From NCBI GenBank assembly GCA_963677815.1, contig OY782499.1, positions 2,789,252 to 2,853,251 of the forward strand: a DNA stretch of 64,000 bases, in the 5' to 3' direction. The position numbers were made by a program, and so were the translations under genes. How positions within the stretch are numbered: position 1 is the stretch's first letter; each line of letters opens with the position of its first letter. Below, piece after piece: positions 746-61,088 of the stretch. The stretch comes from Candidatus Cloacimonadales bacterium. GTDB taxonomy: Bacteria; Cloacimonadota; Cloacimonadia; Cloacimonadales; JAFGVF01. Below the pieces are notes generated by a model. That model did no database searches. It was not told the origin of the DNA and saw only the letters and a list, made by a program, of their open reading frames with translations.

Positions 746-867
746 TAGGGTAGTAGAATGAACAATAAAGATTATTTGAAGTATCAGAACTGAAAGGGAT
801 TTATACTTTCCCTGGTCTACTTGACTCGACCTTACTTTTCTTTTTCTCTTTTTTTAATGAAAAAGAT

Positions 868-896
868 GCGGATGTGGTCATCCGCTTTCCCAGTTA
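868..896 (+). repeat. hairpin module GCGGATG-tggt-CATCCGC followed by TTCCCAGTTA
   Basis: 7-bp perfect stem. The same module recurs at 53185-53213. Confidence 0.75.
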
Positions 897-898
897 TT

Positions 899-1115
899 GA
901 GCTGAAAGGGGATTGTTTACTCTCCCCGGTCTACACGACCACCCCTCTCAAACGCTCTTACGAGCTGAAAGGGGATTGTTTACTCTCCCCGGTCTACACG
1001 ACCACCCCTCTCAGGCACTCTAACGAGTTGAAAGGGGATTGTTTACTCTCCCCGGTCTACACGACCACCCCTCTCAGGCACTCTAACGAGTTGAAAGGGG
1101 ATTGTTTACTCTCCC
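899..1115 (+). repeat. tandem array of a 63-bp unit, about 3.5 copies (GAGCTGAAAGGGGATTGTTTACTCTCCCCGGTCTACACGACCACCCCTCTCAGGCACTCTAAC)
   Basis: Unit starts at 899, 962, 1025 and 1088 (period 63). A degenerate extra copy lies at 790-831. Confidence 0.95.
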
Positions 1116-1194
1116 AGATTACAATAGAGCTTTAAAAATAGCACTATATTATTCTGCAATCTTCAATAAAGTTCTACTAGACTATCTGGGTTAA
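1113..1194. mobile_element. minimal (about 78 bp) copy of the TIR element family (copy E): both inverted ends without the internal modules
   Basis: CCCAGATTACAATAGAGCTTTA...TAAAGTTCTACTAGACTATCTGGG followed by TTAA. The ends match those of copies A-D. Confidence 0.6.
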
Positions 1195-1209
1195 GTTCCA
1201 TCCTAGTTC

Positions 1210-1266
1210 CTTGATTGTTACTCTCTCAATAAGCTACTGTTATTTAATTGAGTAACTAACAATCAA
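1210..1266. repeat. long-stem hairpin H, copy 1 (CTTGATTGTTACTC...GAGTAAC(taac)AATCAAG-like)
   Basis: Inverted repeat with a spacer of roughly 26 nt. It ends 12 nt from the stop of the OstA-like gene. Copies 2 and 3 are at 21751-21808 and 50699-50756. Confidence 0.8.
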
Positions 1267-1278
1267 TCAATAATAAAT

Positions 1279-5847: not shown

Positions 5848-8016
5848 CTAGTATTCTGAAAATTTGAACATATTTTTTGTAAAACCAAAAGCTAAAAAGT
5901 AATTAATTCTTGAATCTAAGTCATAAGCTATAGCTAATCTAAGTGGACCTAAGGGAGTCTTATATCCAAGAGTCAAATCTAATACCTTATCAGAAGTTAG
6001 AGATTCTGCAGAATCATCAATTTCTCCCTTGTAGAGGAACTGACTACTTAAAGTGGCAAAAAATCTATTCTGATAATTATATTGTAGGCCTAGTCTATTT
6101 ATTTGAAAAGCTTCTTCACTTAAACCATGTTTATCTATACCAGTAAAGGAATCAATACCTCCAATCTCATAAGGAGAGAAGGTGTTACCTAATTCTGCAT
6201 TTATGAATAATCCAGATTCAATTCCTGCCTGCAAAGATAAACAAGAGCATAATTTGAAAGATTTGAATAGATCTATATATACCTTTTCGTATGATTCTTC
6301 AGATATCTGACCTTGGAAAGATTTTTGATAAGACAACATGACTCTATTACCTTCACTTGGAAAATAAATATCATCTAAACTTTCGTGATATGCTTTAAAG
6401 CCTAAACCTGCTGCCCCAAATCTTCTTTGCTGTAAATCTAATTGAGCAACATCTTGATAAAGATTTGATCTATATCCAAAGGAATAGCCCTCCCCCACCA
6501 GGATATCTTTTATAAAAAAACCAAGTCCTAACTTTAAACCATATTCAAGTTTTTTTATTCTAACACTTTTATCCCCATCTTCATTATAATAATATAATTT
6601 ACTTTCTTGGAGATGAGGAAAGATATGATAATAAGCACCATATAGGTCACCAAAATTCTTAACATAATCAATTTTAAGGGAGTTTATTCCTCCCAGCTGA
6701 AGGCTTGTGATAAACTTGGAATTCTTCTGTAAGAGATTATTCATAGTTGTAGTTATTCTTGCTATTAGATCATCTGAAGTGTCATAAATAGCATCAAAAC
6801 TTATAAGTGAATTTCCCCTCTCTTTAGTAACTAATTCGAGGTCATACTTTCCTTGGTTATAATGTAGTTTTGGGTAAACCCAGACAAAATGCTTAGTATT
6901 ATAACATTTCATAGCTGATTCAAGGATTTCTGAATAAGTATAGAAGTTATTATTTTCTAATCCAGAAAAGAGTTTGATTTTGCTATCATGAATTGTTTTG
7001 TTACCTGAAGTTGTAATATTATTTATGAATATTCTTTTAGGAATTCTGTATGTATTAGTTTTACTGCTTAACTTCTTCCTTTCTTTAACAAGGCTCTTTA
7101 ATTCATCAATTTTCTCTCTTGCTGCATCTTCCCCAAACTGAATTATTTCTTTTGCATTTTCGAAACTTGAATTTGAGTAATTATCTAATTGTGGAATTAT
7201 GAGCAAATCAGTTTTTTTTATAGATTCTTCAACCCAAACATTCATATTCAAATTAATTGTTTGATTTAAAACTGCAATAAAATCCTCACATTCTCCCTTG
7301 TCTTTTAATGGTGTACTCACTTTGTTAGCAATTGTGAAGTCTGCTCCCATATCAATTAAAGCTTGCACTGGTAGATTATTCTTAACGCCACCATCTATGT
7401 AAAGCTGATTATCAACTTCAAATGGTTCTAGTAAAGTTGGAAAGGCCATTGATGCACGGACAACGTCTATCAAATTACCTTCACTGAAAGTAACTGCTTG
7501 GCCAGTGATTAAATTAGTTGCATTACATCTAAATGGAATAGGAAATTCATCAAAATTCTCATAATATGCTCCAGTATTAAGATGCTTAGCAAGTTTCTGT
7601 AACATATTATTGCCAGATAGAATAGCAATAGGCATATCTAATGATAAATTTTCATCAATATTGAAATTAGCTGCCCCATATTCAAGCCATCTTTTCTCCT
7701 CAATAAAGAGGTCTTTTCTACTAATTGAATCATCAATATTGCTTCTAAAATCAAGTTTCATAAAGATAGCTTCAATTTCCTTACCTGAATACCCTAGTGA
7801 ATATAGAGCTCCAATTAAAGCTCCAAAAGATGTGCCTGAGACATAATCAACTTCTAAACCTATTTCATCAATAACTTTTAATAAGCCGATATGAGCAAAA
7901 GCTCTTGCTCCCCCTCCACTCAAAGCTAAGCCAATCTTAGCTTGATTGGCTGGCAATGAGAATATCACTAGTAAAGTAATTACAATACCAAGAATTCTTT
8001 TCATACTTTTAATCAA
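5848..8016 (-). CDS. patatin-like phospholipase fused to an Omp85-type beta-barrel (PlpD-like, type Vd autotransporter architecture)
   Basis: Signal peptide, then GLALSGGGARAFAHIGLLKVIDE and GTSFGALIG (patatin G-G-G-x-R and GxSxG), DGG motif. The C-terminal half is beta-rich and ends in an aromatic residue (...FKFSEY). Length is 722 aa, similar as I recall to P. aeruginosa PlpD. Confidence 0.7.
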   Translation of the reverse strand: MIKSMKRILGIVITLLVIFSLPANQAKIGLALSGGGARAFAHIGLLKVIDEIGLEVDYVSGTSFGALIGALYSLGYSGKEIEAIFMKLDFRSNIDDSISRKDLFIEEKRWLEYGAANFNIDENLSLDMPIAILSGNNMLQKLAKHLNTGAYYENFDEFPIPFRCNATNLITGQAVTFSEGNLIDVVRASMAFPTLLEPFEVDNQLYIDGGVKNNLPVQALIDMGADFTIANKVSTPLKDKGECEDFIAVLNQTINLNMNVWVEESIKKTDLLIIPQLDNYSNSSFENAKEIIQFGEDAAREKIDELKSLVKERKKLSSKTNTYRIPKRIFINNITTSGNKTIHDSKIKLFSGLENNNFYTYSEILESAMKCYNTKHFVWVYPKLHYNQGKYDLELVTKERGNSLISFDAIYDTSDDLIARITTTMNNLLQKNSKFITSLQLGGINSLKIDYVKNFGDLYGAYYHIFPHLQESKLYYYNEDGDKSVRIKKLEYGLKLGLGFFIKDILVGEGYSFGYRSNLYQDVAQLDLQQRRFGAAGLGFKAYHESLDDIYFPSEGNRVMLSYQKSFQGQISEESYEKVYIDLFKSFKLCSCLSLQAGIESGLFINAELGNTFSPYEIGGIDSFTGIDKHGLSEEAFQINRLGLQYNYQNRFFATLSSQFLYKGEIDDSAESLTSDKVLDLTLGYKTPLGPLRLAIAYDLDSRINYFLAFGFTKNMFKFSEY

Positions 8017-8561: not shown

Positions 8562-8596
8562 AAGAGACACAATACAAAAACTATATTGTGTCTCTT
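8562..8596 (-). terminator. intrinsic terminator downstream of purL
   Basis: 13-bp stem AAGAGACACAATA / TATTGTGTCTCTT with a 9-nt loop and T-rich flanks on both strands. Confidence 0.6.
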
Positions 8597-8613
8597 TTAG
8601 ATTCTGTCAAATA

Positions 8614-10815
8614 TTATTTAATACTATTATACCAACTTGAGAAAAGTTCTTCTTTAGGTATATCTATGATATCATTAACCTTAAATGAATCTCCACTCAC
8701 TTCACCAATTACTGAACAAGTGAAATCTTCACAAATTTCTGTTATAGCTGGAATGTTTTCAGCAACTGTAGAAATTACAATTCGGGAATGGCTTTCTCCA
8801 AAAAGTTCATAATCAGGTCTATTTTCAAAATCAATATCAATTATTGCACCTTTTACACTTGAGTTTGGCAAGAAACAAGATTCCGCTATAGCAACAGCTA
8901 AACCACCATCAGAACAGTCATGAGCAGATTTTATTAATCCCTTATCAATAAGATCTAATACTATTTCATATAATCTCTTCTCTTTATCTAAATCAACAAC
9001 AGGTGCATTACCTAAAATCTTTCCATGAATTTCTTTTAAGAATTCTGAACCAGCAAGTGAATCAGCTTTATCTCCCAAAAGAATAATTACATCACCATCA
9101 TCTTTAAAATATTGATCCATAATCTTAGTATTGTCAGTAACTAAACCTAACATACCAATTGTTGGAGTTGGATAAATAGCTCCGGTTGGGTTTTCATTAT
9201 AGAAAGATACATTACCACCAGTTACAGGAGTATCAAAAGCTCTACATGCATCACCTATACCTTTTATTACTTCAGCAAAAGTCCAATATACTTCTGGCTT
9301 ATATGGATTACCAAAGTTAAGACAGTTGGTAATAGCAAGAGGTTTAGCTCCACTACATACAACATTACGTGCTGATTCAGCAACTGCTCCTTTAGCACCT
9401 TCATAAGGATTTAGCCAGCAGTGTCTTCCATTACAATCAGTTGATAAAGCGAGAGCCTTATTAGTATCTTTAACTCTAACTACACCTGCATCTGAACCTG
9501 GCTCTACCATAGAATTAATCTGTACCATGTGGTCATATTGATTATAAATACTTCTTTTTGAAGCAATGTTATATGATGATAAAAGAGTTAATAAAGCATT
9601 ATTATAATCTTTAGGTTCAGGAATATCTGATAAATCAGCTTGTTGAACTTGATCAATGTAATCAGGCTTTTTAGTCTCACGTTCATACTGAGGAGCATCA
9701 CCACCAAGGACTAAAAATCTAGCAGGTAATTCAGCCTTAACTTGTTCTCCTTCTTTGACTCTTAGCATACCATCATCTGTTACTTTTCCTATGATTTCTG
9801 CATGAAGGTCCCATTTCTCATAAATAGCTTGAACCCTTTCAACATTTTCAGGAGTAACAATCATGAGCATTCTTTCTTGAGATTCAGAGAGCATAATTTC
9901 GTATGGTGTCATACCACTTTCACGTTTGGGAACTAAGTTAACATCAAGTTCAATACCAACTCCTGTTTTCCCTGCCATTTCGCTACTCGAACATGTTAAA
10001 CCTGCTGCTCCCATGTCTTGGATAGCTACAATTACTCCAGCTTCAATAGTTTCTAAAGTAGCCTCTAGAAGTAATTTTTCCATAAAAGGATCACCTACTT
10101 GAACTGCTGTTCTCTTTTCTTCTGACTCATCTGTGAGCTCAACTGAAGCAAAAGTTGCACCATGAATACCATCTCTACCAGTTTTCGCACCAACATACAT
10201 AACATAGTTACCAGGACCTTCTGCTCCAGATTTTGCTAAGTTTTCATGTTTAAGCACACCTACGGCCATAGCATTCACAAGTGGATTACCAGTATAACTA
10301 TCTTCAAAATATACTTCTCCTCCAACATTAGGAACACCAAAACAGTTGCCATAATCAGCAATGCCATCAACAACACCATGCATAAGGAATTTGACATTAG
10401 GACTATTTGGGTTGCCAAATCTCAAGGAATCAAGAACAGCTACAGGTCTAGCTCCCATAGTAAAAATATCTCTAAGGATTCCACCAACACCTGTTGCAGC
10501 ACCATGGTAAGGTTCAACTGCTGATGGGTGATTATGACTTTCAATCTTGAAGGACACAGCTAAGCCATCACCTATATCAACAACACCTGCATTCTCATCG
10601 CCAGCTTTGGCTAACATAGCTTGGCCATCTCTAGGCAGTGTTTTAATAAGTTTGATTGAATTCTTATAACTAGCATGTTCAGACCACATAACTGAAATAA
10701 TTCCTAATTCAGTAAAGGTTGGTTCTCTTTTTAAAGTATCTAAAATAAGTTTCCATTCTTCTTGGTTAATCCCATGTTCTTGAACTATCTCAGGAGTAAT
10801 TTTGGGTTCAATCAT
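8614..10815 (-). CDS. purL: phosphoribosylformylglycinamidine synthase subunit PurL
   Basis: 733 aa. Has [15 protein letters not shown] and the duplicated AIR-synthase-like fold motifs typical of small PurL. Confidence 0.95.
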
Positions 10816-15422: not shown

Positions 15423-15646
15423 TTAACCCAAATAATGCAATAGATCTTTGAGAATAGCACTATATTCTTTTGCAAAAGTAACTTACATAATTCTTCCGAA
15501 TATATATATTATATGCGTAGTTAAGGAATCACCCCCTGTATCCCCCTCAAAGAAGGGGATTTTGCTAAAAGAATATGCACTCTTCGCCTGTGATACGTAG
15601 CTTTAGCGAAGTATTACTAAAGCTCTATTGCACAATCTGGGTTTAA
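15423..15646 (-). mobile_element. TIR element (MITE-like) copy A, about 220 bp, inverted relative to copies B-D
   Basis: Ends are TTAA-CCCAAATAATGCAATAGATCTTTG... and ...CTAAAGCTCTATTGCACAATCTGGG-T-TTAA. The interior contains the AATCCCCTTCTTTGAGGGGGAT hairpin. An extra half-end (GCAGTAGAGCTTTA) lies at 15656-15669. Confidence 0.75.
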
Positions 15647-15739
15647 CCGAAAGGTGCAGTAGAGCTTTATTGGGATAATTGTTGCTTGTATCGATTATTT
15701 AACTATAATTTAAGAAAGAGAAAAGTTAAGGAGCAAAAA

Positions 15740-16993: not shown

Positions 16994-17286
16994 GAGTATT
17001 AACCCCTTTCAGCTCCTTGGAGCGCCTGAGAGGGGTGGTCGAGTAGACCGGGGAGAGTATTTTAACACTAAGTTCGGGCAGGATGCCCGAGTTCCCAGTT
17101 AGAGGGTATTTTAACACCTAGTTCGGGCAGGATGCCCAAGTTCCCAGTTAGAGGGGTATTTTAACACCTAGTTCGGGCAGGATGCCCGAGTTCCCAGTTA
17201 GAGGGGTATTTTAACACCTAGTTCGGGCAGGATGCCCGAGTTCCCAGTTAGAGGGGTGGTCGAGTAGTAGACCGGGGAAAGTATTT
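16994..17286. repeat. composite array: reverse-complement 63-bp module + 4 x 50-bp units (hairpin CGGGCA-gga-TGCCCG + TTCCCAGTTA) + reverse-complement module core
   Basis: TTCGGGCAG starts at 17073, 17122, 17172 and 17222. The flanks GAGGGGTGGTCGAGTAGACCGGGGAGAGTA are the reverse complement of the 899-1115 unit core. Confidence 0.95.
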
Positions 17287-21750: not shown

Positions 21751-21808
21751 CTTGATTGTTACTCTCTCGATTATTCATTGGATTTTTATAGAGTGAGTAA
21801 CAATCAAG
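21751..21808. repeat. long-stem hairpin H, copy 2 (perfect 14-bp arms CTTGATTGTTACTC / GAGTAACAATCAAG, 30-nt spacer)
   Basis: The right arm contains the stop codon (21804-21806) of the M14 carboxypeptidase gene. It lies 170-220 bp upstream of the C25 gene ATG. Confidence 0.85.
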
Positions 21809-22841
21809 GGTTTATGATTCTCAATAGATTAGTCAGAGCACTTCTATGCTTTTTGATAATAGTAAATAAATCATTATTTTTGGGCATAAAGAGAGGAATT
21901 CCATTTGGAGTAATACCCGAAACTTCTATAGTAAAAGCATATGTTCCATAAGTTTTATAAAAATAATCTCTGGCGTAACCATATTTACTTGTTTCTCCTG
22001 TATGTACATGATAATGTCCATCTTTATAGAAACATGGTAGATTCATAGCAAGGCTATCTGCAATACTTTTCATATGATTCCACTCTTGACTTCTCTCCAG
22101 TCCCCAATGATAAGGAAAGAAAATCATCTCTGGATAAGTACCATTTGCAGAGGAGTGATAAAAGAAAGCATAATCAAAATCCATCTTGTCCCCTAACTTT
22201 ATAACTGCTTGAATTTCTGCTTCTGAGCTTGCTCTATTCCCTTTATAATATGGGCATTCAGGGTCATTTAAATCAGCAATATCCCAATTACTCGGGTAAT
22301 TTTTATTTAGATCTACCCCGTCAACTTTCAAGTCAAACACCCCATTAAGATTAGAATCAGTATTATTCTTTCTTTTTAGTGGATATTGTCCAGAATTAAC
22401 AATCTTGTAAGCTTCTGGATTTACCGTTGGAATGATTACAAAATAATAGTTTTTTATTAAGTCTTCTAAATCATTATTTCCCACTAGATCAGCTATTAAA
22501 CCTAGGGCTATCTCTACCCCAATTGGTTCTTCACCATGATGTTGTCCTATGATAAGCACTTTTGGCAAATCTCCAGGGAAATTATAATCCCAAAGTTTGA
22601 CCTTTTTACTCTTCACTTTCTGTGATTTATGGATATGAAAAGCATAGATGGGTAGCTTGTCATTACTTGACTGACCAATTATCTCAATATCTGAAACAAG
22701 TCTATTTTGCTGATGATATGTTAACAAAGTATCACCCAAATTTTCCCAGTTATGATAAGCAGTATCCAAAGGATATTGATTTACTGCTTCAAGCATTAAA
22801 TAAGTTATTAAGATTGTAAGCAGAGCGTAAAATCTCTTCAT
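21804..22841 (-). CDS. M14-family zinc carboxypeptidase
   Basis: Signal peptide and Zn-binding motif IIGQHHGEEPIG (HxxE); 345 aa. Confidence 0.75.
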   Translation of the reverse strand: MKRFYALLTILITYLMLEAVNQYPLDTAYHNWENLGDTLLTYHQQNRLVSDIEIIGQSSNDKLPIYAFHIHKSQKVKSKKVKLWDYNFPGDLPKVLIIGQHHGEEPIGVEIALGLIADLVGNNDLEDLIKNYYFVIIPTVNPEAYKIVNSGQYPLKRKNNTDSNLNGVFDLKVDGVDLNKNYPSNWDIADLNDPECPYYKGNRASSEAEIQAVIKLGDKMDFDYAFFYHSSANGTYPEMIFFPYHWGLERSQEWNHMKSIADSLAMNLPCFYKDGHYHVHTGETSKYGYARDYFYKTYGTYAFTIEVSGITPNGIPLFMPKNNDLFTIIKKHRSALTNLLRIINP

Positions 22842-28291: not shown

Positions 28292-28317
28292 TAGGTCTCC
28301 TAACATCCCAGATAAAA

Positions 28318-43369: not shown

Positions 43370-43629
43370 TTAACCTAAATGGTATAGTAGTGCTTTAGTA
43401 ATCCCCTTCTTTGAGGGGGATACAGGGGGTGATTCCATAAAGACCTATAAAATCCCCTTCTTTGAGGGGGATATAGGGGGTGATTCCATAAAGACGTATA
43501 AAATCCCCTTCTTTGAGGGGGATACAGGGGGTGATTCCATAAAGACCTATAATATCCCCTTCTTTGAGGGGGATTTTGCATAAGAATATAGTGCTATTCT
43601 CAAAGCTCTACTGCATTATTGGGGTCAAT
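43370..43629 (+). mobile_element. TIR element copy D with its central 51-bp module tandemly amplified (about 3.5 copies)
   Basis: Left end is TTAACCTAAATGGTATAGTAGTGCTTTAGTAAT; right end is ...CTCAAAGCTCTACTGCATTATTGGGGTCAA. AATCCCC unit starts at 43400, 43451, 43502 and 43553 (period 51). Confidence 0.8.
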
Positions 43630-43727
43630 ACTTTTCCTCTTCATTTATTTATAGGGTCCAAAATTTCAATTTTGGTTCATTTATAAAAAATAACATGAAA
43701 TTTCACCTTGACTTAACTGGGGTTTAT

Positions 43728-43925
43728 GGACTGGAAATTATGGACTGGCGGCATCTTGCCACCAGACTAAACAGGCCTACCGAGCCTGTTGTGGATGCAA
43801 GATGCATCCACTCCATACTTCCATACTAACCCTGCTTGCTAAAAATCTACAAAGATGTCGCTTTCTACCAAGATGTCACTCCTAGCAGAGCTTTAACTGG
43901 CAAAACAAGCATCCCTGCTTGCAAA
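43728..43925. repeat. cluster of hairpin modules (CTGGCGGC-atctt-GCCACCAG; ACAGGC-ctaccga-GCCTGT; GTGGATGC-aagat-GCATCCAC + TCCATAC; CAAGCA-tccc-TGCTTG)
   Basis: Stems read directly. The same flanking words (TATGGACTG..., ...CCACTCCATAC) recur at 55627-55821. Confidence 0.8.
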
Positions 43926-46858: not shown

Positions 46859-46913
46859 GTTTATTATTTAACCAGATTGGTGAACTGTATTTTAGGGGAT
46901 ATTGCAGATTATT

Positions 46914-47190
46914 TTAGCAAAATCCCCTTTCAGCTCTATAACTGGGAACGCGGGCATCCCTGCCCGCACAGGCAGTTCAACTGACTGTATATCTTCAAAA
47001 TCCCCTTCACAAGGGATTTAACAGCTAACTGGGAAAACGGGCATCTTGCCCGTACTGGGAACGCTCTAAATGACACCTGCGTAACCGCGGGCTGGAATCC
47101 CGCGTTCCCAGTTAGATTAATCCCCTTTCAGCAGCACCCCATCTTTGAGGGGGACACAACAGGGGGTGATTCCATAAACTACGCATATAA
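46914..47190. repeat. mosaic of repeat modules forming the left flank of the accessory segment
   Basis: AATCCCCTTTCAGC; TAACTGGGAA-hairpins GCGGGCA-tccc-TGCCCGC and ACGGGC-atctt-GCCCGT. A 66-nt module (47063-47130) is the inverted copy of 52724-52789. A partial TIR-element core lies at 47128-47190. Confidence 0.85.
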
Positions 47191-47208
47191 CTGGAAAAAT
47201 GGATTAGC

Positions 47209-49647: not shown

Positions 49648-49648
49648 A

Positions 49649-50221
49649 TTATTTATTTAAAAGAACATTTAACCATTTTTCAGTCTCTCTACCAGGCCTT
49701 TTGTCTTGTGAAATAGTGTATTCAACTAAAGAAAAACCTATCTGCTGATAGTTGAGAGATTCGAACTTTTCCTGAGTATAATCACAAAAAAAACGTCCGT
49801 GACGAAATTCTTCTTTTTTGCCATACTTCAATGATAAAAAAAGATAACCACCATTCTTGAGAGATTGATAGATATTTTTCAGAGCATTAGGCATTTGACT
49901 TGATGGAATATGTAAAAGTGAAGCACAAGCCCAAGCTCCAATAAATCTATCTTGGTATTTAATATCAGCAATTTTTTCATTAGAGATTTTAAGCCCCAAA
50001 TAATTCTCAGCTAACTTAGCTAGTTCTTCAGCTGGTTCTAGTGGTAAGACTTTATATCCATGAGACATAAACACTTTAGAGTCTCTACCTGAACCACAGC
50101 CAATATCCAAAATTTCACCTTGAGAAGGTAAATAAGACATAAAGTAGTTTTGTAGTTTGCTCATATCGACGTTTAAAGTGGATTCAAAATATTCTTGTGC
50201 ATTTTTATTATAATAATTCAT
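49649..50221 (-). CDS. class I SAM-dependent methyltransferase (small-molecule/RNA-type, 190 aa)
   Basis: Motif I ILDIGCGSGRDS and a post-I acidic residue (LPLE). No DPPY/NPPY or PCQ DNA-MTase motifs seen. Its stop is 1 nt from the downstream helicase ATG. Confidence 0.8.
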   Translation of the reverse strand: MNYYNKNAQEYFESTLNVDMSKLQNYFMSYLPSQGEILDIGCGSGRDSKVFMSHGYKVLPLEPAEELAKLAENYLGLKISNEKIADIKYQDRFIGAWACASLLHIPSSQMPNALKNIYQSLKNGGYLFLSLKYGKKEEFRHGRFFCDYTQEKFESLNYQQIGFSLVEYTISQDKRPGRETEKWLNVLLNK

Positions 50222-50518
50222 ATTTTACTCCATAAGCTATTATAGTCTTATAATAATTTTGGATTCAGGTGTCAATGATTATTTCTTCTGAAAAGAATAA
50301 ATATTTTGAAGACTATTCAACCATCAAGCTACCTTCCCCAGCAGCATATTCTTTAAGAAGTCTATAATGTTGCCCATCATTTGTTATTTTTACTTTGTTA
50401 AATAAGTTTAGCTAATAGCATTTACTCTAGGTTAGGATTGCTGAAAAACAAATCTTCTTTCAAGATGTAGTTAAACTTTTCTTAAAATCCCTGAGGATTT
50501 AAGAGGCTTATTCCATTT

Positions 50519-50613
50519 GAGCTGAAAGGGGATTAATACTCTCCCCGGTCTAATCGATCACCCCTCTCAAGCGCCCCAAGGAGCTGAAAGGGGATTAATA
50601 CTCTCTCCCGTCT
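50519..50613 (+). repeat. about 1.5 copies of the 63-bp module (variant GGGGATTAATACTCTCCCCGGTCTAATCGATCACCCCTCTCAAGCGCCCCAAG)
   Basis: GAGCTGAAAGG occurs at 50519 and 50581. Confidence 0.85.
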
Positions 50614-50698
50614 TTAAGAGTGTTGGAAGTCGCTACTGCATGCATGAGAATGGTAAAGTTCATTGATTACCTACTATATCCGAATAGTTATTCCTTTC

Positions 50699-50756
50699 CT
50701 TGATTGTTACTCTCTCAATAAAAATTCCATGATTAAATGAGTAAGTAACAATCAAG
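50699..50756. repeat. long-stem hairpin H, copy 3
   Basis: CTTGATTGTTACTC...GAGTAA(gtaa)CAATCAAG, 120 bp upstream of the 50876 ORF. Confidence 0.8.
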
Positions 50757-50875
50757 AAATTTACTAAAATAAAAATATTTTTTTTTCTAGAAGTGCACCA
50801 ATTTCAGGAAAATGGACCCTATAGTATTGTGTAAGGCTTGCAAGCAAAACAAAAAAATTAAAAAGAGGTAAAAAA

Positions 50876-51340
50876 ATGAAAGTAAAATTTAAGTATGGAA
50901 TCAAGAGTTATTCAGGCACATTAGATGATATGGTATTTGCAAATTTTGAAGACAGAAATGTTGTGATTGGAAGAATGTTACCGGCAGATAGAGAAGCTAC
51001 TCCGCAGAATGAGATAATTGCTAGTAATTCTAGAATCATTAGTACATTTTATAAATCTTTGTCAGCAGCATACAAACAAGATTTAACAGAATACGCTAAG
51101 AAGATGTTTAATTTGAAAGCCTATTCCAATCGCGTGGCTGGTTCTGGTTATTCAGTATTCAATAAGATAATTTGGGCAGCTAATGATGATACAGGAAATC
51201 CATTAGATATATCATCTCTTTCAGCTGACGATATTGTTGCTGGCACTTATCCTCAGATTGATACAATCAAGGCTGCAGTAGAAAATGGATATATACCTAT
51301 GGTAGGAGGTTATGAAGAATTTAATAATCCTCTAGTATAA
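50876..51340 (+). CDS. hypothetical protein (154 aa)
   Basis: ATG preceded by AAGAGG; followed by a hairpin and T-tract terminator. No recognisable motif. Confidence 0.5.
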   Translation: MKVKFKYGIKSYSGTLDDMVFANFEDRNVVIGRMLPADREATPQNEIIASNSRIISTFYKSLSAAYKQDLTEYAKKMFNLKAYSNRVAGSGYSVFNKIIWAANDDTGNPLDISSLSADDIVAGTYPQIDTIKAAVENGYIPMVGGYEEFNNPLV

Positions 51341-51355
51341 ACTAGAAAAGATTTC

Positions 51356-51392
51356 TCTTCCAGGAGTTGAAAAGACTTCTGGAAGATTTTTA
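51356..51392 (+). terminator. intrinsic terminator downstream of ORF 50876-51340
   Basis: TCTTCCAG-15 nt-CTGGAAGA followed by TTTTTA. Confidence 0.6.
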
Positions 51393-51516
51393 TTACAATA
51401 CAATCTGTTATTAGCTGTATGAATGATAAATTATTGATTTATAATAATATAAATATTAGTCATCTTTAGAGAGTCTCAAAAAAACTATTATTTTTTCTCT
51501 TTAAGTAATTTTTTTA

Positions 51517-51545
51517 TTGACAAAATAACTGTATTTATTTATTAT
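51517..51545 (+). promoter_or_regulatory. near-consensus sigma-70-type promoter with no ORF downstream for about 550 bp
   Basis: TTGACA (51517-51522), a 17-nt spacer, then TATTAT (51540-51545). Confidence 0.35.
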
Positions 51546-51857
51546 GTTTTCATTATTAATTAACTAGATGGAGGCGTTTGGAATTTAATAAGAGTAAATA
51601 ATCAAAGATGAGTGGTTTCTACAAGGAGTTAATGGGTATTTTGGGATAATAGGTATGATTTATAAATATGTAAACACAATTTCGTATTCAGTCAGGTTAA
51701 ATTAACTATCATTCAATATTAAATAATTTCAATATTATTATTATTATATTTGATAAAGCTTAAGCGTTTTATTCTATTATAATATGTGATTATACTTCCC
51801 AAAGTATTTAAAAATAAATATACGATATTTCATCAGGGATTGGGGAGTAGAAAATAT

Positions 51858-52081
51858 TTAACCCAGATAGTGAAGAAGAACTTTATTAATACTTGGCTAA
51901 AGCTACGTATCACAGGTGAAGAATGCAGATTATTCTAGCAAAATCCCCTTCTTTGTGGGGGATACAGGGGGTGACTCCATCAACTACGCATATAATATAT
52001 ATATTCGGAGAAATTATGGAAGTTACTTTTGCAGAATAATATAGTGCTATTCACAAAGGTCTTGTGCATTATTTGGTTTAA
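51858..52081 (+). mobile_element. TIR element (MITE-like) copy B
   Basis: TTAA-CCCAGATAGTGAAGAAGAACTTTATTAATAC...core AATCCCCTTCTTTGTGGGGGATACAGGGGGTGACTCC...CACAAAGGTCTTGTGCATTATTTGG-T-TTAA. Confidence 0.75.
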
Positions 52082-52103
52082 GCATAGTTTTACAGGAGTA
52101 TAT

Positions 52104-52718
52104 ATGCAAATAGAAATGCAATACAATCATAAACAAGATTCTCTCATTATTAAATCAGCAGGTCTCAAGGATGTAGTTTTGAAGTCAAGTGTAGGGGCAA
52201 AATCATTATATCATTTAATTAATAATCCAAACAGATCATTTTCTCCGATATTATTAAGGAATATTACTAAAGAAGAGGTTAACTTATCAAATATGATTAA
52301 AGAAAAATTTGAGATTACAAGTAGAGAAGATCAATTATTATATCAATCAATACATCAGTATATACCTGCATCAGATATGAAGACTATAATAGAATGTAGA
52401 AAAAGGTTAAAGGTTATTTTAGAAGAATTGAGGGAAGCAGACTTCAATAACGATATTGGCAGAAGCGAAACACTTGTTGAAGAGAAAGAATTTATTGAAA
52501 AATATATTCATGATTCTGTTAGTGCTAATGGCTCTTTTAGAAACCTAAATAATTCTAAGAGAAATGCAACCAAAGCTCTTCAAAGAAATATTAGAAATGT
52601 TTTGAATGAAATAGATGAACAATCTCCAGAAATATATAAGTTTATTACAAAAAGATTGATAGTATCAACAAATCAGATAAAATATTACCCTGATAATGAT
52701 TATACTAGTGTAGATTAA
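52104..52718 (+). CDS. hypothetical protein (204 aa), possibly regulatory
   Basis: ATG at 52104 is preceded by AGGAG (52094-52098). The ORF-track start at 52029 is a TTG inside repeat element B. Helical, K/E/N-rich. Confidence 0.5.
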   Translation: MQIEMQYNHKQDSLIIKSAGLKDVVLKSSVGAKSLYHLINNPNRSFSPILLRNITKEEVNLSNMIKEKFEITSREDQLLYQSIHQYIPASDMKTIIECRKRLKVILEELREADFNNDIGRSETLVEEKEFIEKYIHDSVSANGSFRNLNNSKRNATKALQRNIRNVLNEIDEQSPEIYKFITKRLIVSTNQIKYYPDNDYTSVD

Positions 52719-52723
52719 ACCAT

Positions 52724-53213
52724 GAAAGGGGATTAATCTAACTGGGAATGCGGGATTCTAGCCCGCGGTTACGCAGGTGTCATTTAGATGGCGGAGAAAA
52801 TCTCCACCGTCCGACAAATACTCTCCCCGGTCTACACGACCACCCCTCTCAGGCGCTCTAGCGAGCTGAAAGGGGATTGTTTACTCTCCCCGGTCTTATC
52901 GACCACCCCTCTCAGGCGCTCCAAGGAGCTGAAAGGGGATTAATCTAACTGGGAATGCGGGATTCTAGCCCGCGGTTACGCAGGTGTCATTTAGATGGCG
53001 GAGAAAATCTCCACCGTCCGACAAATACTCTTGTCCCCGGTCTACACGACCACCCCTCTCAAACGCTCCAAGGAGCTGAAAGGGGATTGTTTACTCTCCC
53101 CGGTCTACACGACCACCCCTCTCAGCCGCTCCAAGGAGCTGAAAGGGGATTAATACAGGGATGCCCGTGTTCCCAGTTATATATGCGGATGTGGTCATCC
53201 GCCTTCCCAGTTA
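52724..53213 (+). repeat. higher-order repeat: about 208-bp unit x2, followed by two TTCCCAGTTA hairpins. Each unit = 66-nt module + GGCGGAGA-aaa-TCTCCACC hairpin + two 63-bp modules.
   Basis: GAAAGGGGATTAAT occurs at 52724, 52931 and 53141. Confidence 0.9.
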
Positions 53214-53340
53214 TAAAGCTGGAAGGGGATTTTAATCCGAGAGAATCCCCATCTCCCTTCGCTAATACATTCTACATAGCTTTAGCCTAGTAGAAAGCTT
53301 CGGAAGAAAAACCGTCGATTAGAGAGCTTTTTCCTAATAT

Positions 53341-54145: not shown

Positions 54146-55501
54146 TTATTCTAAAATTAACCAATCCTGGTCTATCACATTAAATGATTTAATATAATTA
54201 TCCTTGAGTGATTGGTAATTTTCTACTGTTTGAACTTTATTGATTACAGTTTTTATTTCGTTTAAAGATTTGATTCTGCTATCAAGTTTTGCTTTAGCAG
54301 CAAGTAATTTTTCCCAGTTATTAACTTTTTCAGAAATTTCATCTTTAGCCTTTTGACTAGGATTTTTCATTTTGTCATGATTTTCAACAGCATTATCTAA
54401 TGAATTTTTGTTATTTGAAATTGCAGAAGCAATAATAGAATTAAAGTTTTGATAAAATTCAAGGTAAATAGAGATATCTTGATGTCTAAAATTATCTTTG
54501 ATATAAGTTTCAAACGAGATAAATAATTCACGGTCAGATTCTGTGATCAAACTAACATTCAAATCAAAGTCCTCTGGATTAATAGTAGATTTAAAACTAT
54601 TAATAGCTGTGTCTCTTTCTTGAGTAAGAGCAGGAAGCATTTCAATGTTTTCTTGTAAAAAGTTAGGTCCTAGTTTCATGTATTCAGATCTTGGTCCAAC
54701 TTCATAGATTTCATCTTGGATATTATAAATAACTTGAGCACCTTGACTACCAAATTCTTCAGTGGTCTCAGCAACAATAGTAGAATCTGCTGTTAAAGTG
54801 TATGAGAAGTATTTAGCTTGAACTTTATTAAGGTCAACTAAGTTGATATTGCTAAAATTTCTTATTTGATTGTAAGATAAATCATACTGACCATCAACAG
54901 GTTTAAGCCCTTTAACAAAGGTAATAACTTGGATAATTTCGTTATTAAATTGTTCTTCTAAACCAGGAGTAACAAAATCAGCAAATCTTCTTTCAGCTAA
55001 ATCATAAAATTCAAAGAATTTATTGTCTTCTAAGAAAGTTCCTAAATTAGGAAGAACATCATAATCAAAGTTTAATTTAACAAGACTTACATCGTTGACA
55101 TATTTATCAAATTTTGATAAGTAGGCAACTTTTACAAGAGGTCTAACCTCTGTTTGTAAGAAAGTAATATAGTCTTTTTTCTTGGTAAAAGAAAGATATT
55201 TTTTAGCAAAATCTTTTTCGAAATTAACATATTTTAAGAAGTCGTTAACCCCAATATAATATTTAAGTTCTTCACTGTTTAAGCTTTTGATTTCACTTAG
55301 TTTTAGATCCTCAAGTTGACCAGTTTGGTCGTAAGCCTTCAAGATACTATTAACGTTATTCTTCATTTCTCTAATTTTTGGTTGTGCTTGATTAGCCTGA
55401 GTAAATGGCACAATAAATACAATTAAAATACCAACGATCATTACAATCATTAAGTATTCTACTAAAGAAAATGTATGGTCCTTGGTTCCTTTAGCCATCA
55501 T
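54146..55501 (-). CDS. large protein with type IV pilin-like N-terminal methylation/TM segment (451 aa)
   Basis: N-terminus is MMAKGTKDHT-FSLVEYLMIVMIVGILIVFIV (F-S-L-V-E with Glu at +5, then a hydrophobic helix). The residue at -1 is Thr rather than the usual Gly. Confidence 0.55.
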   Translation of the reverse strand: MMAKGTKDHTFSLVEYLMIVMIVGILIVFIVPFTQANQAQPKIREMKNNVNSILKAYDQTGQLEDLKLSEIKSLNSEELKYYIGVNDFLKYVNFEKDFAKKYLSFTKKKDYITFLQTEVRPLVKVAYLSKFDKYVNDVSLVKLNFDYDVLPNLGTFLEDNKFFEFYDLAERRFADFVTPGLEEQFNNEIIQVITFVKGLKPVDGQYDLSYNQIRNFSNINLVDLNKVQAKYFSYTLTADSTIVAETTEEFGSQGAQVIYNIQDEIYEVGPRSEYMKLGPNFLQENIEMLPALTQERDTAINSFKSTINPEDFDLNVSLITESDRELFISFETYIKDNFRHQDISIYLEFYQNFNSIIASAISNNKNSLDNAVENHDKMKNPSQKAKDEISEKVNNWEKLLAAKAKLDSRIKSLNEIKTVINKVQTVENYQSLKDNYIKSFNVIDQDWLILE

Positions 55502-55626: not shown

Positions 55627-55821
55627 CTATGGACTGAGACCATCTTGGTCTCAGGTGGAAGTAAGGATACTTCCACTCCATACTCCAAAAATGTGACAGC
55701 TGCATAACCACGGGCTGGAATCCCACGACCCTATGGACTGAGACCATCTTGGTCTCAGGTGGAAGCAAGGATGCTTCCACTCCATATACTTCTGCGTAAC
55801 CACTGGCTAGAATCCACGACC
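55627..55821 (+). repeat. 104-bp unit x2 containing two hairpins each (CTGAGACC-atctt-GGTCTCAG; GTGGAAGY-aaggat-RCTTCCAC)
   Basis: CTATGGACTG occurs at 55627 and 55731. Confidence 0.9.
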
Positions 55822-57238: not shown

Positions 57239-57243
57239 AAACT

Positions 57244-57620: not shown

Positions 57621-57795
57621 TAAATCCCCCTTGGTGAGGGGGAAAACAGGGTGTGTTCCTTTATAATCCCCCTTAGTGAGGGGGAAAACAGGGGGTGTTC
57701 CTTTATAATCCCCCTTAGTGAGGGGGAAAACAGGGGGTGTTCCCTTATAATCCCCCTTAGTGAGGGGGAAAACAGGGGGTGTTCCTTTATAATCC
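57621..57795. repeat. tandem array of a 42-bp hairpin unit, 4 copies + partial (AATCCCCCTTAGTGAGGGGGAAAACAGGGGGTGTTCCTTTAT)
   Basis: AATCCCCC occurs at 57623, 57665, 57707, 57749 and (partial) 57791. Each unit contains CCCCC-ttagtga-GGGGG. Confidence 0.95.
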
Positions 57796-58857
57796 GAGAT
57801 TATACCACTCAACAACTTTACTCTTAAGATAATCAGCAGTTTCACTGTTTATGCCTGTTGGTAAGTATAAGGTATTTTCTGGGCTATCTGAAAAGATCTC
57901 TTGATAGAAACAGAGTGCTGCTAAATAAGTACCTTGCATGGAGGGATGTGAGCCATCTCCAGAGTATAAAGAAACAGTATGTTCATCTTCGAAAACATAG
58001 TTAAATATTTGTCCCACAGGTACAACTATTGCATTTAGGTTTTGACCTGCTTGCAAATAAGCTGATGATAAGCCTTCAATCTGACTTTGGTCGTATTCTC
58101 TTGCCCAGGTCATAAAGAAGCAAGTTTGTGCCCCACTTAAATCAATTAAACTATCAAGTTTACTAGCATAAGTGAAAAATGTATCAGGGTCAAGAATTGG
58201 CATCTGACTTTGTTCCTGTAGGACAACCATGTCCCAGTTTCCATTTAAAATACTTGCTTGAGTACTTGGGTTATCAAAATGATTTTGTAAAGTCATTCCT
58301 CCACCTGTTATAGCTTCAACTTCTATGCTTAGATATTCTTCTGTAGATTGAGCAACACTACTGAACATTACTTCTAAACCACCGTTAGAATAAGTATAAC
58401 TATTACCTATAAAAAGAAAGCGTTCAGGTAAATCAGGTGTAATTTCCCAATCAACAACTATTTCAATTGAGCCTGTATAATCATTTATTACCATTGTTAG
58501 GTTAACTAAAGATGTCTGACCAGGTAATACTTCAACTTGAGTTTCTCCATGGGCTATAATATATTGATTCGAGAATAGATCAACTTCTAAATCCCATAAG
58601 CCTGGATTCAAATCATCAATTGTTCCACTGGCTGATGTTTCAGAGATTTGCAAGTTTCTAGTAAAACTTTCTTCATCTTTACTTAAAGAAACGATAGCCT
58701 GAGTAACAGTAATTTCAAGTTCTTGCAGGGGTATCAAGGAAATATCTAAAGGAATTGAGCCCTTATCTTCACTGCTAGTTTCAGTTGGATTAGAACTTTG
58801 ACAAGCAGAAAGCAAACTTAGCAGGAGAATGAGAATAAGATAGAATAATCTTTTCAC
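57787..58857 (-). CDS. lipoprotein with SGNH/GDSL-like hydrolase C-terminal domain
   Basis: Lipobox LLSAC. An Ig-like N-domain is followed by FLFIGNSYTYSNGG (block I-like) and GDGSHPS (block V-like). Confidence 0.55.
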   Translation of the reverse strand: MKRLFYLILILLLSLLSACQSSNPTETSSEDKGSIPLDISLIPLQELEITVTQAIVSLSKDEESFTRNLQISETSASGTIDDLNPGLWDLEVDLFSNQYIIAHGETQVEVLPGQTSLVNLTMVINDYTGSIEIVVDWEITPDLPERFLFIGNSYTYSNGGLEVMFSSVAQSTEEYLSIEVEAITGGGMTLQNHFDNPSTQASILNGNWDMVVLQEQSQMPILDPDTFFTYASKLDSLIDLSGAQTCFFMTWAREYDQSQIEGLSSAYLQAGQNLNAIVVPVGQIFNYVFEDEHTVSLYSGDGSHPSMQGTYLAALCFYQEIFSDSPENTLYLPTGINSETADYLKSKVVEWYNLGL

Positions 58858-58865
58858 ACTTACTC

Positions 58866-59660
58866 CTAGAATTGATATAAGTCAGGTCTTCTATCACTGA
58901 AAGCATCATTGTGCTCAGTGACTGTCTTATTTAAAGCTTCAGCAGGACTAATTCTAACAAAATTAATAGCTTCTTCTGTTTTACTGAGAGAAGTTAAAAG
59001 TTCTCCTTTAGTGTTTAAGATTTGGCTCATACCAGTGAAATAAAGGTCTTTATCGCCATTAATCTCTCTTCCTATTCGGTTGGAAGTAATAGAGAAGACT
59101 CTGTTTTCTAAAGATCTGATTGTCATTGCCTTTTGGCACCAAGGAAGAACGAGATTAGAAGGATGGGCAATAATTTGAGCACCTCTGAGAGCTAGACTTC
59201 TAGCAGATTCAGGGAACTGCCAGTCAAAACAAATCATCAGCCCAACTTTAACTCCACCTTTTGCAGGGAATACTTGGAATCCAGTGTCGCCTGCTTGGAA
59301 GAATATTTTCTCTTCAAAGAAAAGGTGAGTTTTCCTGTATGTGAAAATTTGCCCATCAGGATTAAATAAAGAGCAGGAATTATAGACTTTTCCTTGATAT
59401 AATTCAGGAAAGCCAATAACAAGACTACAATCTAAATCTTTAGCTAATCTGGTGAAAAGCTGAGCTGTTTTACCTGTTTTCGCATCTTCAGCAACTGATA
59501 AGACTTCTTCTTGACTATTAAAAACATAGCCTGATGTTGCTAGCTCAGGCAAGACAATTAAATCAGCTTCTTGGTCCTGAAGCATTTCTTCTAAATAAGC
59601 TAAGTTTTCATCAACTTTTAAAAGCTTCGGTTCAAACTGTAACACACCTACTTTATACAT
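58866..59660 (-). CDS. carbon-nitrogen hydrolase (nitrilase superfamily)
   Basis: E-K-C triad contexts LPELATSGY, YRKTHLF, MICFDWQFPE. I prefer ATG 59660 (AGGAG upstream) over the ORF-track start at 59690. Confidence 0.85.
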   Translation of the reverse strand: MYKVGVLQFEPKLLKVDENLAYLEEMLQDQEADLIVLPELATSGYVFNSQEEVLSVAEDAKTGKTAQLFTRLAKDLDCSLVIGFPELYQGKVYNSCSLFNPDGQIFTYRKTHLFFEEKIFFQAGDTGFQVFPAKGGVKVGLMICFDWQFPESARSLALRGAQIIAHPSNLVLPWCQKAMTIRSLENRVFSITSNRIGREINGDKDLYFTGMSQILNTKGELLTSLSKTEEAINFVRISPAEALNKTVTEHNDAFSDRRPDLYQF

Positions 59661-59677
59661 AAAATCTCCTTTTTTAC

Positions 59678-60823
59678 TTAAATTTTCCAAGGTAGAAGAT
59701 AGTCTTTAATTTCTTCATTATAATATCTATCAGTCATAGTAGCAATGAAATCTCTTACTTTCTCAGCTGGAGAGAATTTCTCTGAATACTCTTGATTCTT
59801 ATGATTTAGGAATTGCAAGAATATCTTAGAGTTACTATTATTACTTTCAATATCCTGCATATATTTGTCAAAAAGAATATCCATAGACCTGTTAATGATT
59901 TGATTAGCTTGTTTAACATTTTCATCAGTATAGATATACTTATAGTTGAAATTCTTGAGTTTCAACAAATAATGAGATGTCTCTTCATCAAAAGCTATAT
60001 GTTCAGTTTCATAACTATTAACAATTACGCTTTTTACTAAAGTATCAATTATCTGAGAATTAGTATTTCCTAAGAAATCGGTGCAGTCTTTAGGAAGCTG
60101 GTCACTTTTGAGAATTTTAAAACGGACAGCGTCCTCGATATCTTGCCCTATATAAGCTATTGTATCAGATATTCTAACAACACATCCTTCCATTGTTGCT
60201 GGCATCCAAAGAGCATTTTGGTCATTTGTTTTCTTTTCTATATAGTCTTTGATATCTTTCTCTGTTTTGTCTCTTTGGGGTTTTAACACTGTATTATGGA
60301 CTTCTCCATCATGGGAAATAATTCCATCTCTTACCTGAAAAGTAAGATTCATACCTCGTCCCTTCTTGGCAATATGATCTACTATCTGCAAGGATTCAAT
60401 GTTATGGTGAAAGGAACCAATCCCATACTTGCGACAAACTCTTGATAGAGCTTTTTCTCCATCATGCCCAAAAGGACAATGACCTAAATCATGTCCTAAA
60501 GCAATAGCTTCAATAAGTTCTAAATTTAAATTCAATGCCTTACCTATGGTTCTAGAAATTTGAGAAACATAAGTAGTGTGAAGATTTCTATTGGTCATTT
60601 CTTCATCAATTAAATTTGTAAATGAAAAAACCTGTGTCTTCCCATGATATCTTCTATAAGCACCACTGTAGAGTATTCTATCTCTATCTAAGGCAAAATT
60701 TGTTCTGATATGCTCTTTTGGTTCTGCTTTAAGTCGAAAAGCCTGACTATCCTTAAAAGCATAAGGAGAAAGTTTTTCATAAGTATTTTCTACTATTTTC
60801 CTAAATATCTCTTTTTTATTCAT
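59678..60823 (-). CDS. dGTPase-like HD-domain triphosphohydrolase
   Basis: FALDRDRILYSGAYRRYHGKTQVF, and HD motif ALGHDLGHCPFGHDGE. Confidence 0.8.
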   Translation of the reverse strand: MNKKEIFRKIVENTYEKLSPYAFKDSQAFRLKAEPKEHIRTNFALDRDRILYSGAYRRYHGKTQVFSFTNLIDEEMTNRNLHTTYVSQISRTIGKALNLNLELIEAIALGHDLGHCPFGHDGEKALSRVCRKYGIGSFHHNIESLQIVDHIAKKGRGMNLTFQVRDGIISHDGEVHNTVLKPQRDKTEKDIKDYIEKKTNDQNALWMPATMEGCVVRISDTIAYIGQDIEDAVRFKILKSDQLPKDCTDFLGNTNSQIIDTLVKSVIVNSYETEHIAFDEETSHYLLKLKNFNYKYIYTDENVKQANQIINRSMDILFDKYMQDIESNNSNSKIFLQFLNHKNQEYSEKFSPAEKVRDFIATMTDRYYNEEIKDYLLPWKI

Positions 60824-60836
60824 AAGACCTCAATTG

Positions 60837-61088
60837 TTAATCCCTAATTGAGCAGTAGAGCTTTAGTAATACTTCGCTAAAGCTACGTATCACAGGTGAA
60901 GAGTTCAGATTCTTTTTGCAAAATCCCCTTCTTTGATGGGGACACAGGGGGTGATTCCATAAATTCCGCATAATATATATTCTGAAGAATTATGTAAGTT
61001 ACTTTTGCAATGAGTCTTCGCTAAAGCTACGCTCTCACAAGAATAATATAGTGTTATTCTCAAAGAACTACTGCATTATTTGGGTTAA
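60837..61088 (+). mobile_element. TIR element (MITE-like) copy C, about 250 bp, occupying the whole trmB / HD-gene intergenic region
   Basis: TTAA-TCCCTAATTGAGCAGTAGAGCTTTAGTAATAC...core...CTCAAAGAACTACTGCATTATTTGGG-TTAA. Contains an internal duplication of CTTCGCTAAAGCTACG. Confidence 0.8.

Follow-up and report, generated by a model that had tools for sequence, protein, structure and literature searches.

The window described here, the whole 64,000-nucleotide (nt) stretch of DNA that was analyzed, is part of a Candidatus Cloacimonadales genome assembled from a metagenome (a MAG; contig OY782499.1, positions 2,789,252 to 2,853,251), and its subject is the set of short repeated modules found in its intergenic gaps. 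The Cloacimonadota are abundant, uncultured syntrophs of anaerobic digesters. The window has a GC content of 32.6%, and most of its genes lie on the minus strand. They include the housekeeping genes purL, infB-nusA-rimP, feoB, ygiQ, and ndk, and type IX secretion system (T9SS) sorting domains are present on several of the encoded proteins. A gene map of the window was constructed together with seven module hidden Markov models (HMMs). No match to transposase, integrase, or Cas families was found among the ~50 window open reading frames (ORFs) scanned, and the remaining ORFs were covered via synteny with annotated relatives. Because the window encodes no transposase, any mobilization of the modules would have to occur in trans, in agreement with a preliminary description of this DNA made from its sequence alone.

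The repeats comprise an element of ~224-260 nt that lacks an ORF, hereafter MITE-T, and a group of short GC-rich hairpin modules, referred to as H, G, A, W, X, and P, which occur in head-to-tail arrays, in mosaics, and inside MITE-T. Their positions in the window are as follows.

866..896, minus strand: H unit, hairpin GCGGATGTGGTCATCCGC then TTCCCAGTTA, with the head TAACTGGGAA on the minus strand
899..1115, plus strand: A-module array, 63 nt x 3.4 (Tandem Repeats Finder, TRF), with a degenerate junction remnant at 786-818
1122..1195, plus strand: MITE-T fragment, a solo right end that terminates ...CTATCTGGGTTAA
1210..1266, no strand: P palindrome, ~20-bp stem CTTGATTGTTACTCTCTC...GAGTAACTAACAATCAA with an AT-rich loop; fold z-score -5.1
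15423..15646, minus strand: full MITE-T, TTAA on both sides, nested G module at 15521-15561
15643-15675: truncated second terminal repeat (MITE-T solo end) that shares its TTAA with the 15423..15646 copy
16994..17286, minus strand: mosaic with an A unit at 17001-17059 and a partial A unit at 17248-17283
17057-17257, minus strand: four 50-nt units inside the preceding mosaic, an H unit in each (TRF, 50 nt x 4)
21751..21807, no strand: P palindrome that overlaps the stop codon of gene 21804..22841
43370..43628, plus strand: MITE-T variant, interior replaced by a G-module array (43400-43574, 51 nt x 3.4)
43700..43925, plus strand: H-like heads and a three-hairpin W variant, TATGGACTGG...CCACTCCATAC at ~43736-43818, H-like unit at 43894-43919
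46914..47190, no strand: mosaic of a J word, two H units (plus), a small hairpin, X/H (minus), a second J word, and G (47137-47177)
50485..50613, plus strand: small hairpin and 1.5 A units
50699..50755, no strand: P palindrome
51858..52081, plus strand: full MITE-T, nested G module at 51942-51980
52724..53255, plus strand: largest mosaic, block J-H-X-A-A, 210 nt x 2.1 (TRF, 52723-53154), continued by two H units on the minus strand (53156-53213), a J word, and a small hairpin; z-score -9.0
55627..55821, plus strand: two 104-nt units, each a W module and a headless hairpin/X part; z-scores -6 to -7
57621..57795, plus strand: G-module array, 42 nt x 4.1 (TRF, 57623-57795)
60837..61088, plus strand: full MITE-T, TTAA/TTAA flanks, nested G module at 60922-60962, 31-nt internal duplication

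Repeat finding, TRF, and self-BLAST together identified 3488 nt of self-similar DNA. Repeats were recovered at all 11 of the loci named in the preliminary description, which total 3363 nt or 5.25% of the window, and two P palindromes that it had missed were added (21751-21807 and 50699-50755). Self-repeat coverage is 5.45% for the window and 8.2% for its last third; in related loci it ranges from 0 to 5%. The module repertoire accounts for ~40% of the intergenic DNA of the window, and the GC content of the hairpin-module loci, at ~50%, stands well above the 32.6% of the window. Modules occur in 12 of the 16 intergenic gaps of 100 nt or more, and the module HMMs gave no hit inside any window gene. 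Two of the four module-free gaps contain other, unrelated palindromic or duplicated elements. Stop codons are touched or overlapped at 57787-57795, 61085-61088, 21804-21807, and 52724; indeed, the terminal partial unit of the G array at 57621..57795 provides the stop codon of gene 57787..58857.

Four junction words recur in the window, and their counts lie above those of every dinucleotide-preserving shuffle. The word TAACTGGGAA has 22 matches with at most one mismatch (5.6 expected), GCTGAAAGGGGATT has 17 with at most two mismatches (0.5 expected), CCACTCCATAC has four (0.33 expected), and AATCCCCTTCTTTGAGGGGGAT has seven (0 expected). Thus the early statements that repeats at 11 loci cover more than 5% of the window, fill nearly every long intergenic gap, disrupt no coding gene, abut several stop codons, and share recurrent junction words all hold. 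The repeats are not an assembly artifact, since assemblies of other organisms that were made independently (ENA, JGI, and Logan) contain the same modules.

Exact copies of TAACTGGGAA are also found within coding regions at 20744-20753, 22743-22752, and 54311-54320, in each case with no hairpin following. They are more numerous than chance predicts for a 10-mer. Two of them lie in a common 22-nt context that encodes AY(D/H)NWEN, in C25 and M14 peptidase genes.

MITE-T is a true miniature inverted-repeat transposable element (MITE), an assignment that is well supported by its terminal inverted repeats (TIRs), target-site duplication (TSD), and empty sites. The window contains four full copies and at least two partial ones, and further copies are present in loci fetched from related genomes (L001, L011-L014, L036, and L038). 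Five copies, namely 15423-15646, 51858-52081, 60837-61088, 43370-43628, and L001:6289-6488, align as one element with imperfect TIRs of 30-45 nt (TTAAACCCAGATAGTGCAGTAGAGCTTT... and ...AAAGATCTACTGCATTATTTGGGTTAA) and with TTAA on both flanks. The copy at L013:7455-7620 has TTGA on both flanks in place of TTAA, and thus the four flanking base pairs are a TSD rather than element sequence. A comparison of filled and empty sites leads to the same duplication of fixed length. The filled site at 60837-61088 reads GTAAC-TTAA-(252-nt MITE)-TTAA-CAATTGAGG, and the corresponding empty site in L020 reads GTAAC-CTAA-CTGTGAGG. In this spacer, which separates the Methyltransf_4 gene from the HD gene, three other species lack the element; its length is 12 nt in both L020 and L036, and 50 nt in L038. 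Likewise, the copy at 15423, which has the csp promoter on one side and a divergent gene on the other, has no counterpart in the orthologous gap of L013, L011, or L015.

Solo ends of MITE-T occur at 1122-1195 and 15643-15675 and in several relatives. The interior of the element is variable: one G module is present in three of the window copies, 3.4 in the 43370 copy, and none in the L001 copy. Small, non-coding, and multi-copy, MITE-T has the attributes by which MITEs are recognized. Scans of viral contigs with TIR patterns gave no match for a degenerate pattern, and for the exact TIR word one chance coding match and one solo end.

Each H unit consists of an invariant head, TAACTGGGAA, one variable base, a 7-bp stem, and a loop of 3-4 nt. 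In the alignment of H units, 96% of the stem cells are paired, as opposed to 22-43% when the partner strand is slid by one to three columns; six of the seven pairs have changed on both sides, and none of 500 shuffles reaches the observed covariation score. The G module is a hairpin, AATCCCC-loop-GGGGGAT, followed by CAGGGGGTG. The A module is a 63-nt unit built from an interrupted long hairpin and a short hairpin. The W module opens with TATGGA, contains two or three hairpins, and closes with TCCATA; its fold is Y-shaped with z-scores of -6 to -7, and at 55627..55821 the closed hairpin pair is of this form. Fold z-scores are about -3 for X and -5 for P, and A and G alone are not convincingly better than shuffles. 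Whole mosaics fold as long hairpins because their outer H units are inverted, as at 46914..47190, where the entire locus forms one long hairpin (z-score -6.5).

The units within an array are 96-100% identical to one another, and the recurrent joining word GAGCTGAAAGGGGATT stands before either an A or an H unit. The presence of G modules inside MITE-T ties the two groups of repeats together. The preliminary description of one interlinked repertoire has to be amended, however: at least two mechanistic kinds are present, a MITE with TIRs and a TSD, and hairpin modules that lack a TSD. Three assignments to other classes were considered and rejected. A sigma-54 promoter reading of the H head fails on the GG-N10-GC spacing. 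Integron attC sites are not indicated, given that there is neither a GTTRRRY core nor an integrase. A CRISPR array does not fit either, for the units are contiguous and near-identical without unique spacers, and the window contains no cas domains.

The modules might instead be functional cis-acting RNA elements, that is, terminators, 3'-end stabilizers, or attenuators, kept by selection on the transcript. The hairpins are stable and covary, and several modules directly follow a stop codon or separate co-directional genes within an operon. In addition, G hairpins in one orientation are followed by TTTT, three being flagged as terminator-like, and where solo G copies stand at the 3' end of a gene in the window, L011, and L012, their orientation is the same. 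Against this, the window contains 14 terminator-like sites versus 9.3 ± 3.2 in shuffles, which is not an enrichment; only a few G hairpins qualify, and the H, A, W, and P hairpins have no U-tract. The A and G modules and MITE-T are found in both orientations relative to the flanking transcription units, and modules also occur in divergent promoter gaps. In L021, a W-G-H-W-G mosaic lies directly upstream of the ispF ribosome-binding site with G in the sense orientation. An orientation bias with respect to transcription was looked for across the window modules, and none was consistent. Orthologous sites hold from zero to four copies, three related species have no modules in the same operon spacers, and phage ORFs are translated in frame through modules of this repertoire (see below). 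Termination as a general explanation was therefore rejected on the lack of enrichment and the inconsistent orientation, and the broader proposal of transcript-level function is unlikely. The earlier suggestion of an exaptation for termination or 3'-end stabilization is not supported. Modules in operon spacers are presumably co-transcribed, and they may affect the mRNA.

The modules are present in at least six other Cloacimonadales assemblies and thus are not confined to the window. When species-representative genomes were scanned for the core of the 63-nt unit, only two MAGs matched, both labeled Candidatus Cloacimonadales. No hits were obtained with the module HMMs in the more distant Cloacimonadota loci L003 and L015 or in non-Cloacimonadales loci; L003 was the one useful relative provided by a metagenome-contig scan with IF-2. 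Rfam yielded no hits at gathering thresholds, and E-value scans returned chance hairpin hits only, such as mir-315 on the P palindrome (E 0.08). In GenBank, BLAST matched neither the MITE to a plasmid nor the largest mosaic to a phage. Searching the literature by taxon and with the sequence words produced nothing relevant, the 10-mer matches being unrelated primers, and no repeat family for Cloacimonadota was described in the literature searched. The modules are accordingly found only in related Cloacimonadales genomes and their phages and match no catalogued Rfam family, as expected from the initial view that they are lineage-specific.

Recent activity, also proposed at the outset, is borne out by the 96-100% identity of the array units and by three insertions missing from relatives. 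At the site of the G array (57623-57795), the orthologous spacer is 32-37 nt long and module-free in L020, L036, and L038; the MITE-T at 60837-61088 is absent from the same three species, and that at 15423-15646 from three relatives. W units occupy the gap downstream of the flippase gene in the window; the L020 gap has a degenerate G/MITE remnant, and those of L036 and L038 contain nothing recognizable. Turnover is visible between the related genomes L011 and L012, the differences at one orthologous gap being the duplication of a 141-nt block and the inversion of a W hairpin.

Two further observations were made in these relatives. A group II intron (L012:5400-7520, with an RVT_1/GIIM ORF at 6165..7430) lies directly after the terminator of the C25 peptidase gene and is absent from the otherwise near-identical L011 locus. 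The contig L019 (Logan SRR32608973_36969) derives from a strain of the window species, its Ndk being 100% identical and its flanking DNA differing by a few single-nucleotide polymorphisms. This short-read contig stops exactly at the start of the 52724-53255 mosaic; the repeats break short-read assemblies.

Modules of the same types were encountered inside phage genes. A scan of viral contigs with the H pattern matched IMGVR_UViG_3300042254_000260 (L017/L023), a Mu-like phage in which Portal_Mu, Mu_F, and PBECR2 domains are fused in one 954-aa ORF and which also encodes a small terminase and a CI/S24 repressor. The portal-MuF ORF (L017:231-3095, equivalent to L023:3001-5775) contains a tandem of three H units, hairpins of the G type, and another H block, all in frame. 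In a 61% identical phage, IMGVR_UViG_3300028603_000271 (L024), the fused ORF is also present, and clean gaps stand in place of the modules at both sites. In a ~90% identical phage, IMGVR_UViG_3300001336_000216 (L025/L026), the content at the first site is different and yet the ORF is still open: at least 2.5 tandem A-type units of 63 nt (21 codons each) are followed by X-type and G-type pieces. The phage and window A units have a common architecture with compensatory stem changes. Tandem H units are also observed between the terminase and portal genes (L026:2737-2867). No matches were obtained in the viral contigs with an A-junction pattern.

Another possibility is that the arrays are themselves coding repeats or remnants of such repeats, ORFs 821..1135 and 52955..53290 being examples, or that they are CRISPR-like arrays in a degenerate state. 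Two of the arrays are traversed by open frames, and the periods of 63 nt (array at 899), 51 nt (43400), 210 nt (52723), and 42 nt (57623) are multiples of three; together with the translation of the same module types in phage ORFs, this pattern is suggestive, but alone it is not statistically significant. The 50-, 104-, and 32-nt periods are not multiples of three, the window A units have a stop codon in the frame used by the phage, and the ORFs in question lie entirely inside repeats that occur in both orientations. The arrays have no unique spacers, and the window has no cas genes. Either version of this explanation is very improbable.

The modules also mark places where gene order changes. 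Every species examined has modules in the gap immediately downstream of ndk, and these differ among the window, L020, L021, L036, and L038, as does the next gene past the gap: a helicase/methyltransferase segment in the window, an M28 peptidase gene in L020, ispF in L021 and L022, a BREX-like gene set in L036, and an acetate kinase gene in L038. The window segment, 6.5 kb in length (46859-53340), has no counterpart in L020, which has 347 nt between ndk and the M28 peptidase gene. It encodes a RadD/EcoAI-like helicase, a small S-adenosylmethionine (SAM) methyltransferase, and two ORFs (50876..51340 and 52029..52718) with no Pfam hit and no obvious HUH or DDE motif. Bracketing it are two mosaics with a common inverted stretch: a 68-nt segment of the 52724..53255 mosaic is 97% complementary to 47065-47132. 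In L020 (10700-10760), L021 (2470-2530), and L022, the Ndk protein is identical and synteny is lost exactly after an inverted H unit, with breakpoint sequences GGCGGATGTGGTCATCCGCTTTCCCAGTTA in L020, before the M28 peptidase gene, and ...CATCCGCAATACCAGTTA in L021, before ispF. Finally, the ogg (HhH-GPD) gene at L013:7778-8425 is inverted relative to the window, L011, and L012; it is flanked by MITE-T ends and, on the opposite side, by a long perfect palindrome (8590-8660).

It could be argued from these arrangements that the modules are recombination sites or scars of integrating islands and inversions, spread by gene conversion with no dedicated enzyme. The absence of the bracketed segment from L020, the breakpoint after the H unit, the different island next to modules downstream of ndk in each species, the inverted ogg gene beside MITE ends, and the replacement rather than addition of module content in the phages all speak for such an origin. 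Most module loci, however, lie between syntenic genes that have not been rearranged (60837, 57623, 55627, and 15423), the MITE has a classical TSD, and no mosaic has an integrase or recombinase gene in its vicinity. Dispersed repeats are expected to give rise to rearrangements, which need not be how the repeats originated. Overall, such an origin is quite unlikely.

The reading that we prefer, to which a probability of about 0.72 is assigned, is that the intergenic gaps have been colonized by a clade-specific consortium of non-autonomous selfish repeats, namely MITE-T together with hairpin modules resembling repetitive extragenic palindromic (REP) sequences, bacterial interspersed mosaic elements (BIMEs), and BOX elements. 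MITE-T would move by cut-and-paste through a DDE-type transposase whose gene lies elsewhere in the genome. The hairpin modules would land beside or inside existing modules, MITE-T included, and their arrays would then grow head-to-tail by slippage or unequal recombination. Insertion of new modules next to or within older ones would account for the mosaics and for the recurrent junction words. The feature under selection is probably the hairpin shape with its conserved head. Such selection would fit the recognition of single-stranded DNA hairpins by a REP-associated tyrosine transposase (RAYT) or an IS200/IS605-like HUH enzyme, or else template switching. That an enzyme of the RAYT or IS200/IS605-type HUH class is the agent for the hairpin modules is possible but doubtful, the alternative being template switching and gene conversion. 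Effects of the modules on mRNA would be a by-product.

Several points weigh against this reading. No transposase gene, and hence no autonomous partner of MITE-T, was seen in the window or in the relatives' loci that were fetched, and neither the 64-kb window nor those loci contain a RAYT (Y1 HUH) gene. The hairpin modules leave no clean TSD-like footprint. In L025/L026, the phage array replaces some native codons and is thus not a simple insertion, which favors recombination or template switching over classical transposition. The H alignment comprises 15 copies from the window, three relatives, and one phage, a few degenerate copies having been excluded. Furthermore, the module HMMs were trained mostly on window copies, such that the absence of hits in distant relatives could in part reflect divergence.

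A bolder version of the proposal is that H, G, A, W, and X constitute an undescribed class of self-targeting mobile hairpins, in which a clade-specific enzyme would read the TAACTGGGAA head and the hairpin shape and insert at the junction words. We regard this as quite improbable. If it were correct, the mosaics, the arrays, and the in-frame invasion of phages would follow, the 42-, 51-, and 63-nt periods would reflect selection in a coding context, and the modules would be a marker of, or a weapon in, the conflict between Cloacimonadota and their phages.

Comparison with known systems places the preferred consortium of selfish repeats as a new family of known kinds. MITE-T is similar to the Correia elements of Neisseria and the cyanobacterial Nezha in being small and non-coding, with TIRs, a short TSD of fixed length at a preferred target (TTAA in MITE-T), numerous dispersed copies, and solo ends, and in leaving genes intact while inserting into operon spacers. 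It differs from both in its unrelated sequence and in an interior that holds a variable number of another repeat, and from Correia in the 4-bp TTAA duplication as opposed to TA. The 4-bp YTAR-type duplication may be likened to that of IS5/IS701-type DDE elements.

The hairpin modules work in the manner of REP/BIME sequences and of the RAYT-mobilized REPINs (REP doublets forming hairpins) of Pseudomonas. The H module, like these, has a short conserved head and a 7-bp GC-rich hairpin, occurs singly, in tandem, in inverted pairs, and in mosaics with other motifs, lies outside chromosomal genes, and is clade-specific. Its head TAACTGGGAA (TAACTGG(G)(A)(A)) contains no GTAG tetranucleotide, its stem sequences vary within one genome by compensatory changes, and same-orientation head-to-tail arrays are common. 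All of the window copies are extragenic; copies of the H, A, X, and G types lie in frame inside a phage ORF.

With BOX elements (boxA-boxB(n)-boxC) only the modular logic is shared. Fixed ends surround a variable inner module (0, 1, or 3.4 G modules) and stable hairpins are predicted, but there is no sequence similarity to boxA, boxB, or boxC by Rfam and BLAST, the ends of MITE-T are true TIRs with a TSD, and the inner module G is also free-standing, as arrays and as solo copies. With the Rickettsia palindromic elements (RPEs) the common property is the tolerance of palindromic repeats in frame, which here is limited to phages, namely the portal-MuF linker of two Mu-like phages. Every chromosomal copy in the window is intergenic, the units are modular and far shorter, and the host lineage and sequences are unrelated; membership of the RPE sequence family is not indicated, as searches of Rfam and of GenBank plasmids and phages revealed no similarity beyond the Cloacimonadales. 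The small dispersed repeats (SDRs) of cyanobacteria, reportedly described by Elhai and colleagues in 2008, are said to be very short, hairpin-prone repeats nested in MITEs and in each other that form interlinked repertoires differing between close relatives. The Cloacimonadales set differs in sequence and phylum and in its prominent conserved junction words and long head-to-tail arrays.

The repertoire therefore represents another independent case of REP/BIME/BOX-style modular hairpins, combined here with a MITE and an RPE-like coding tolerance, and it calls for no new principle. In practical terms, it marks synteny breakpoints and the edges of defense islands. It also provides a ready marker for strain typing and for linking hosts to their phages, given that Mu-like phages of the same habitats carry these modules.

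Two other intergenic features of the window deserve mention. Upstream of feoB, at 25501-25780, is a palindromic element of ~280 nt whose terminal inverted repeats are 48 nt long and which also contains an inner inverted repeat, AAGCCCCGGAGGGGCGATAATA / TATTGTCGCCCCTCCAGGGCTT. Its sequence is unrelated to the modules, and it has a single copy in the window. At 28310-28604, a segment of ~215 nt lies between two identical 39-nt terminator-like hairpins; Rfam returned sub-threshold chance hits only. The segment is ~88% conserved in another species (L002:1160-1375), where it ends in a different terminator-like hairpin and adjoins a module mosaic. Either a conserved gene for a small RNA or a small insertion might explain it.

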